Assembly (NCBI RefSeq): GCF_030013205.1
Contig: NZ_CP122648.1
Length of the DNA: 64,000 nt
Strand: one strand, 5' to 3'
Source of the DNA: Escherichia coli
GTDB taxonomy: Bacteria > Pseudomonadota > Gammaproteobacteria > Enterobacterales > Enterobacteriaceae
In this document: piece after piece, positions 35,261 through 35,457 of the stretch
How positions within the stretch are numbered: position 1 is the stretch's first letter
How the letters are laid out: each line of letters begins with the position of its first letter
Position numbers and translations under genes: made by a program
Notes under the pieces: model-generated
Databases searched by the model: none
What the model saw: only the letters and a program-made list of their open reading frames with translations
What the model was told of the DNA's origin: nothing

Positions 35261-35303
35261 TCGTTGTAACCTGATTAACTGAGACTGACGGCAACGCCAA
35301 ATT

Positions 35304-35405
35304 GCCTGATGCGCTGCGCTTATCAGGCCTACAAGTTGAATTGCAATTTATTGAATTTGCACATTTTTGTAGGCCAGATAAGGCGTTTACGCCGCATCCG
35401 GCAAC
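35304..35405. repeat. REP/BIME-type repetitive extragenic palindromes in the fliC 3' UTR
   Basis: GCCTGATGCGCTGCGCTTATCAGGCCTACA and TGTAGGCCAGATAAGGCGTTTACGCCGCATCCGGCA are typical E. coli REP units in inverted orientation. Confidence 0.6.
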
Positions 35406-35434
35406 ATAAAGCGCAATTTGTCAGCAACGTGCTT

Positions 35435-35457
35435 CCCCGCCACCGGCGGGGTTTTTT
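35435..35457 (+). terminator. Intrinsic terminator ending the fliC transcript
   Basis: ccccgcc/ggcgggg stem followed by TTTTTT. Confidence 0.65.

Follow-up and report, generated by a model that had tools for sequence, protein, structure and literature searches.

The fliC 3′ UTR of an Escherichia coli strain very probably holds an intact orthologue of the K-12 sRNA FliX

The window, by which we mean the whole 64,000-nt stretch of Escherichia coli contig NZ_CP122648.1 (assembly GCF_030013205.1) analysed here, carries fliD on the minus strand followed by fliC and fliA on the plus strand, and this gene order, taken from the list of open reading frames, is that of K-12. Compared with K-12 fliC, the gene is 89% identical over its 5′ 510 nt and 93% identical over its 3′ 270 nt, and it is preceded by a sigma-28-type promoter (Table 1), which was compared with the sigma-28 consensus TAAAGTTT-N11-GCCGATAA. 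Melamed et al. (2023, eLife 12:RP87151; PMC10578931) used an in vitro template named ‘flic (-70)’, from which the fliC transcription start site is placed near 33403; the oligonucleotide table used below comes from the same study. Downstream of the gene, a terminator scan found an intrinsic terminator whose stem, CCCCGCCACCGGCGGGG, occupies 35435-35451 and is followed by T6 at 35452-35457. The fliC mRNA ends at this terminator, which is also the presumed Hfq-binding module. Elsewhere in the window, the other Rfam families matched at gathering score were RseX, DsrA, STnc490, and three tRNAs, at 3470-3558 (−), 11786-11872 (+), 63815-63938 (+), and 45250-45549 (+).

The original prediction, made from the letters of this DNA, had placed two inverted REP-type palindromes between the fliC stop codon and the terminator, and both were found there. 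A repeat finder returned inverted arms at 35319-35334/35367-35382 (16 nt, 94% complementary) and at 35302-35313/35393-35404 (12 nt, 92% complementary), and the REP units of which these arms are part matched the Z1 and Y REP consensus sequences at 29/30 and 33/35 positions, respectively. The linker between them contains an IHF-consensus-like sequence (ATTCAATAAATTG, minus strand, 35344-35356) with one mismatch to WATCAANNNNTTR, about 0.02 sites of this kind being expected per linker. BIME-1 elements have been described as a z1 and a y REP in inverse orientation, occurring in single copy and joined by a long L linker in which an IHF site is often present (PMC3333891), and the REP pair in the window has this BIME-1-type layout, with a putative IHF site. 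The REP portion is a dispersed repeat: when 5,426 complete E. coli genomes were searched with the 197-nt segment 35261-35457, 72,668 matching places turned up in 5,425 of them, with a median of 12 per genome, and the matches centred around positions 20-167 of the query. A blastn-short search found no second copy of the BIME in the 64-kb window. One class of REPs, whose members start at most 15 nt past a stop codon, is reported to stall terminating ribosomes (PMC12306157); REP1 starts at 35303, which leaves 42 nt after the end of the fliC stop codon (35260), and it therefore falls outside this ribosome-stalling class. An 11-nt direct repeat (TGACGGCAACG at 35286-35296 and TGTCAGCAACG at 35419-35429; 9/11 positions, 82% identity) brackets the BIME, so the FliX seed described below resembles the sequence just 5′ of REP1, maybe by chance, and the two copies pair in part in the predicted long-form fold.

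That this 3′ UTR is the source of the sRNA FliX had likewise been suggested from the letters, and the K-12 annotation, the alignment, and the primers and probe of Melamed et al. all bear it out. In RefSeq NC_000913.3, the ncRNA fliX (b4827, ‘small RNA FliX’) occupies 2001912..2002106 (195 nt) and starts 3 nt past the fliC stop codon. Pairwise alignment with the window gave one substitution (A for G at 35376) and one T fewer in the tail, the remaining 193 aligned positions of 35264-35457 being identical, and the 197-nt query matched a K-12 genome at 99.5% over 197 nt. Set against these published coordinates, the interval first proposed (35261-35457) was exact at its 3′ end and off by 3 nt at its 5′ end. 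The FliX cloning primer SM044 begins at 35264, i.e., at FliX +1, the northern probe SM043 matches the reverse complement of 35414-35441 exactly (PMC10578931), and the FliX-S 5′ end at 35350-35353 falls within the REP linker. The published M1 mutation (GCA>CGU; GCA>CGT in the primer) maps through SM644 and the gBlock to seed positions 35424-35426, and the seed in the window, GUCAGCAACGUGC, has the M1 site GCA intact and is the same as the wild-type seed in SM644 and the FliX-S gBlock; within it, CAGCAACGT is unchanged across 13 sampled alleles. No mapped FliX element is missing from the window copy, which has the 5′ ends of FliX and FliX-S, the seed, the SM043 site, and the terminator. Rfam 15 gave no FliX family match, the only matches here being to ES036 on the minus strand and, below threshold, to naRNA4, both of which we attribute to the repeat. 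We assign a probability of about 0.92 to the reading that 35264-35457 is the fliC 3′ UTR-derived orthologue of the K-12 sRNA FliX, with the processing route and REP pairing as proposed below; the feature is already published and annotated as FliX and is not novel.

Table 1. Features of the fliC-FliX region, in window coordinates
Feature	Position	Strand	Description and basis
Sigma-28-type fliC promoter	33370..33396	+	TAAAGGTT, 11-nt spacer, GACGATAA; read from sequence
fliC CDS	33473-35260	+	595-aa flagellin, FliX parental mRNA; list of open reading frames
Small hairpin over fliC stop codon	35256..35279	+	35256-35263 pairs with 35272-35279; predicted, MFE fold of 35061-35457
FliX, full length	35264..35457	+	194 nt here, 195 nt in K-12; b4827 annotation, alignment, primer SM044
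REP unit 1 (Z1-like)	35303..35332	+	29/30 positions match Z1 consensus; inverted-repeat arms
BIME linker (L-type), A/T-rich	35333..35368	.	36 nt between REP1 and REP2
FliX-S	35350..35457	+	~105 nt (105-108 nt predicted); T7 template/gBlock start 35350, cloning primer SM673 start 35353
REP unit 2 (Y-like, inverted)	35369..35403	-	33/35 positions match Y consensus
Seed region UUGUCAGCAACGUGC	35418..35432	+	Primer SM644, FliX-S-M1 gBlock; identical to K-12
Intrinsic terminator	35435..35457	+	7-bp G-C stem, 3-nt loop, T6; terminator scan

Much of what this RNA may do in the strain can be read from work on K-12, where FliX of ~200 nt and FliX-S of ~100 nt have been reported, the latter with one REP downstream of fliC (PMC10578931). 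Transcription from the sigma-28 fliC promoter crosses fliC and ends at the terminator that corresponds to window 35435-35457, and FliX is sigma-28 dependent, its levels dropping in a fliA mutant. A 5′-phosphate-dependent exonuclease depletes FliX, which indicates that it arises by processing of the fliC mRNA and not as a primary transcript; the nuclease responsible is not named, and RNase E is not mentioned, in that study (PMC10578931). Both the ~200-nt and the ~100-nt forms co-immunoprecipitate with Hfq, RIL-seq chimeras connect FliX to fliC and the S10 operon, and the seed, situated after the second REP and ahead of the terminator, pairs within the coding sequences of fliC, rplC, rpsS, and rpsQ (PMC10578931). 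Reporters for rplC, rpsS-rplV, and rpsQ are repressed by both FliX and FliX-S, and in vitro the rpsS footprint is lost with FliX-S-M1 and regained with the compensatory rpsS-M1 (PMC10578931). Physiologically, FliX overexpression leads to less fliC mRNA, less flagellin, and fewer flagella, and the chromosomal seed mutant is mild, with slightly more flagella late in growth and unchanged motility (PMC10578931).

RNA fold prediction supported the structured character that had been proposed for this UTR. The 194-nt RNA folds at −69.3 kcal/mol as against −51.9 ± 4.2 kcal/mol for shuffled sequences (z = −4.19), and none of 200 shuffles was as good, so that, together with the presence of a dispersed repeat, there is more structure here than expected by chance; the FliX-S fold also stands apart from its shuffles (z = −3.28). 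The G>A change at 35376, the sole substitution relative to K-12, takes one G-C pair from the predicted REP hairpin of FliX-S, and the same position is mismatched in the predicted long form of both strains. An alignment of 13 alleles yielded compensatory changes at 0/56 pairs, the sequences being too alike to inform, and some of these alleles carry uncompensated REP mismatches. The structure therefore rests on prediction and sequence identity, and evolutionary support extends no further than that.

In the predicted fold of the precursor (35061-35457), position 35264, the FliX 5′ end, is the first loop base of the stop-codon hairpin, and 35350-35353 sits in the 10-nt apical loop 35347-35356 of the REP1-REP2 hairpin. 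Because both published 5′ ends lie in predicted single-stranded A/U-rich loops, cutting of the RNase E type seems suited to them, and we propose that an endonuclease of this type would cut in these loops at both FliX 5′ ends. In the long form, REP1 and REP2 would pair together and supply most of the stability, and once the linker is cut REP2 would refold by itself into the hairpin at the FliX-S 5′ end. The part played by the REPs is probably that of a stabilising structure and not of a regulatory determinant, and by analogy with the listed roles of REPs, among them mRNA stabilisation (PMC3333891), it is plausible that they shield the fliC mRNA from 3′ exonucleases. As for the seed, its 5′ half (35418-35424) is predicted to pair with 35285-35291 in full-length FliX, with an unpaired probability <0.1, and the predicted mean accessibility of the seed core rises from 0.42 in FliX to 0.57 in FliX-S. 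Seed unmasking was considered as a claim in its own right and set aside because this gain in accessibility is too modest.

Target pairing in this strain was assessed with RNAduplex. With the window seed, it found the site published for rpsS (−23.3 kcal/mol), at precisely the position of rpsS-M1. In K-12 fliC, the best predicted FliX site is +399-433 (−23.4 kcal/mol), which lies within the 171-460 fragment probed by Melamed et al. (PMC10578931), and we regard it as a candidate pairing site on the strength of this prediction; the equivalent site in the 595-aa allele of the window (33871-33905) reaches only −15.8 kcal/mol, via synonymous differences.

The FliX-bearing UTR is not shared by all E. 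coli. The long UTR, called at ≥80% coverage of 35141-35620, is present in 3,501 of 5,426 complete E. coli genomes (~65%), and a short UTR, present in ~30%, has 18-19 unrelated nt followed by the same terminator, without REPs and seed. The fliC-fliA spacer is 163-164 nt in the short forms versus 320 nt, and homology to the window picks up again exactly at 35435, such that the terminator is kept even in E. coli alleles without the rest of FliX. Junction-specific queries divided the short forms into one class of 783 genomes, with the kind of junction found alongside a 349-aa flagellin (FDAARGOS_144, CCUG 73778), and another of 863 genomes, of the ETEC H10407 type; the short segments compared with window 35261-35434 were L002:421-438 and L004:2482-2500 (L004 being the ETEC H10407 locus). 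In each complete E. coli genome that has it, the seed-terminator segment occurs once. The RNA known as FliX in K-12 thus goes with only some fliC alleles, and, since ~30% of genomes have neither its REPs nor its seed, its function is dispensable.

Two observations concern individual strains in this comparison. In ETEC H10407 (L004:3411-4739), the annotation gives fliZ, which follows fliA, as a truncated pseudogene adjoining an IS1 transposase and an integrase fragment. In NZ_CP103465.1, from strain 5392 labelled O25b:H4-ST131, a 436-aa flagellin (fliC at 885-2195 of locus L007) occurs with the long FliX UTR; the genomes with a 349-aa flagellin have the short UTR, and the H4 label may not fit the fliC of strain 5392. 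Beyond E. coli, an exact 25-mer across the seed-terminator junction was sought in 100,044 species-representative genomes and matched once, in a contig of a ‘Collinsella’ MAG, a scan that counts exact matches only and hence says little on taxonomic range. This 3.9-kb contig (JAIJJM010000281.1, locus L006, positions 1-480) is a piece of E. coli DNA with fliC, FliX, and fliA that agrees with the window at almost every aligned position, and it is almost certainly misbinned in, or a contaminant of, the Collinsella sp. MAG.

From this distribution we draw a tentative proposal, to which we give somewhat less than even odds, that FliX is an fliC-allele-linked module built around a BIME-1 and no fixed part of the flagellar regulon, in which linker cleavage may partly unmask the seed. 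If this were true, FliX would not connect flagellin with the mRNAs of ribosomal proteins in short-UTR lineages, and, equally speculatively, seed unmasking by linker cleavage could explain FliX-S as the more active form.

Readings other than an sRNA were weighed against the same evidence. The region might do no more than stabilise and terminate the mRNA in cis, with 3′ exonucleases blocked by the REP pair and the terminator hairpin, and the RNAs of ~200 and ~100 nt would then be inert decay intermediates of the very abundant fliC mRNA. REPs have been described in just these terms, as mRNA stabilisers and terminators (PMC3333891), and the very stable predicted structure, the weak phenotypes of the chromosomal seed mutant, and the absence of the whole segment from many E. 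coli strains would all be in keeping with such a role, but inert intermediates are difficult to reconcile with the published Hfq enrichment and RIL-seq chimeras with specific targets, with the restoration of FliX-S-M1 binding by a complementary rpsS mutation in published in vitro footprinting, with the published repression of reporters by FliX and FliX-S, or with a seed that lies outside the REPs and has a core invariant in the sampled alleles. We consider this reading unlikely; a cis-acting stabiliser role can coexist with an sRNA role and is contradicted as the sole explanation by that footprinting result. A role at the DNA level is distinctly improbable; on this reading a BIME-1 and its IHF site, lying ahead of the fliA promoter region, would bend the DNA or form a supercoiling barrier between the very strongly transcribed fliC and fliA. 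It would accommodate the Z1-like REP, the 36-nt linker, the Y-like REP, and the IHF-consensus-like site with its one mismatch, and REPs have been described as topological insulators and the L linkers of BIME-1 as often carrying an IHF site (PMC3333891). However, the ~30% of genomes that lack the BIME share the conserved sequence upstream of fliA, which evidently functions there, so fliA evidently does not need the BIME; nor would this reading explain the Hfq-bound RNAs.

An independent sRNA on the minus strand, at 35325-35366, was raised by cmscan, which matched Rfam ES036 (CssrF; RF02751) there at 42.9 bits versus a gathering score of 37.6 (E = 1.3e-6 in a 3.5-kb search, E = 2.5e-5 over the whole 64-kb window). 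We give this very little credence: the match spans the BIME linker and a REP edge, which is dispersed repeat, a scan found no sigma-70-like minus-strand promoter nearby, and transcription runs heavily in the opposite sense. The ES036 model most likely describes the BIME-1 linker repeat itself and not a separate or unique gene; a literature search for ‘ES036’ returned only unrelated papers. The naRNA4 family (CssrE; RF02564) reached 36.5 bits, below its gathering score of 59.5, as a partial match to REP2; of the 77 positions in the model, those of the first REP hairpin alone are aligned. That the region encodes a small protein is scarcely credible, even though the mechanical list of open reading frames includes both a 66-aa ORF (35309-35509, +) and a 44-aa ORF (35329-35463, −), since both traverse the REP palindromes and the terminator, where chance REP-spanning ORFs are expected, and K-12 RefSeq annotates the ncRNA alone at this place; we set these small ORFs aside as repeat artefacts.

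Reading 35264-35457 as the orthologue of FliX places it in the published sigma-28-dependent sRNA layer (UhpU, MotR, FliX, and FlgO) that tunes flagella synthesis and ties it to ribosomal protein expression. Recognizing FliX here adds nothing new to that picture and confirms an intact copy in this strain. The REP-plus-seed polymorphism is the one point of wider value, as strains that naturally have or lack FliX could serve to test the contribution of the sRNA and its REPs.

Relative to K-12 FliX (fliX, b4827), the copy in the window is the same in its start 3 nt past the fliC stop codon, its location upstream of fliA, its seed, its REP pair, and its terminator, and it differs in the G>A at 35376 in the REP2 stem, in a T6 instead of a T7 tail, and in its parental fliC, which encodes 595 aa here and 498 aa in K-12 and whose putative self-pairing site is weaker by prediction. 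Like FliX, FlgO (from flgL) is released from an mRNA 3′ end, ends at that mRNA’s own terminator, and binds Hfq, and SroC is, as FliX is, an sRNA with a REP (PMC12306157); the seeds and targets of FlgO and SroC differ, FliX having been reported to pair inside ribosomal protein coding sequences and with its own parental mRNA. With BIME-1 or RIP-type pairs, the element shares inverse REPs, a long linker with an IHF-like site, occurrence as a single unit, and many genomic relatives. Unlike plain BIME-1 or RIP pairs, it lies inside a functional sRNA that binds Hfq, and the site of FliX-S processing is in its linker.
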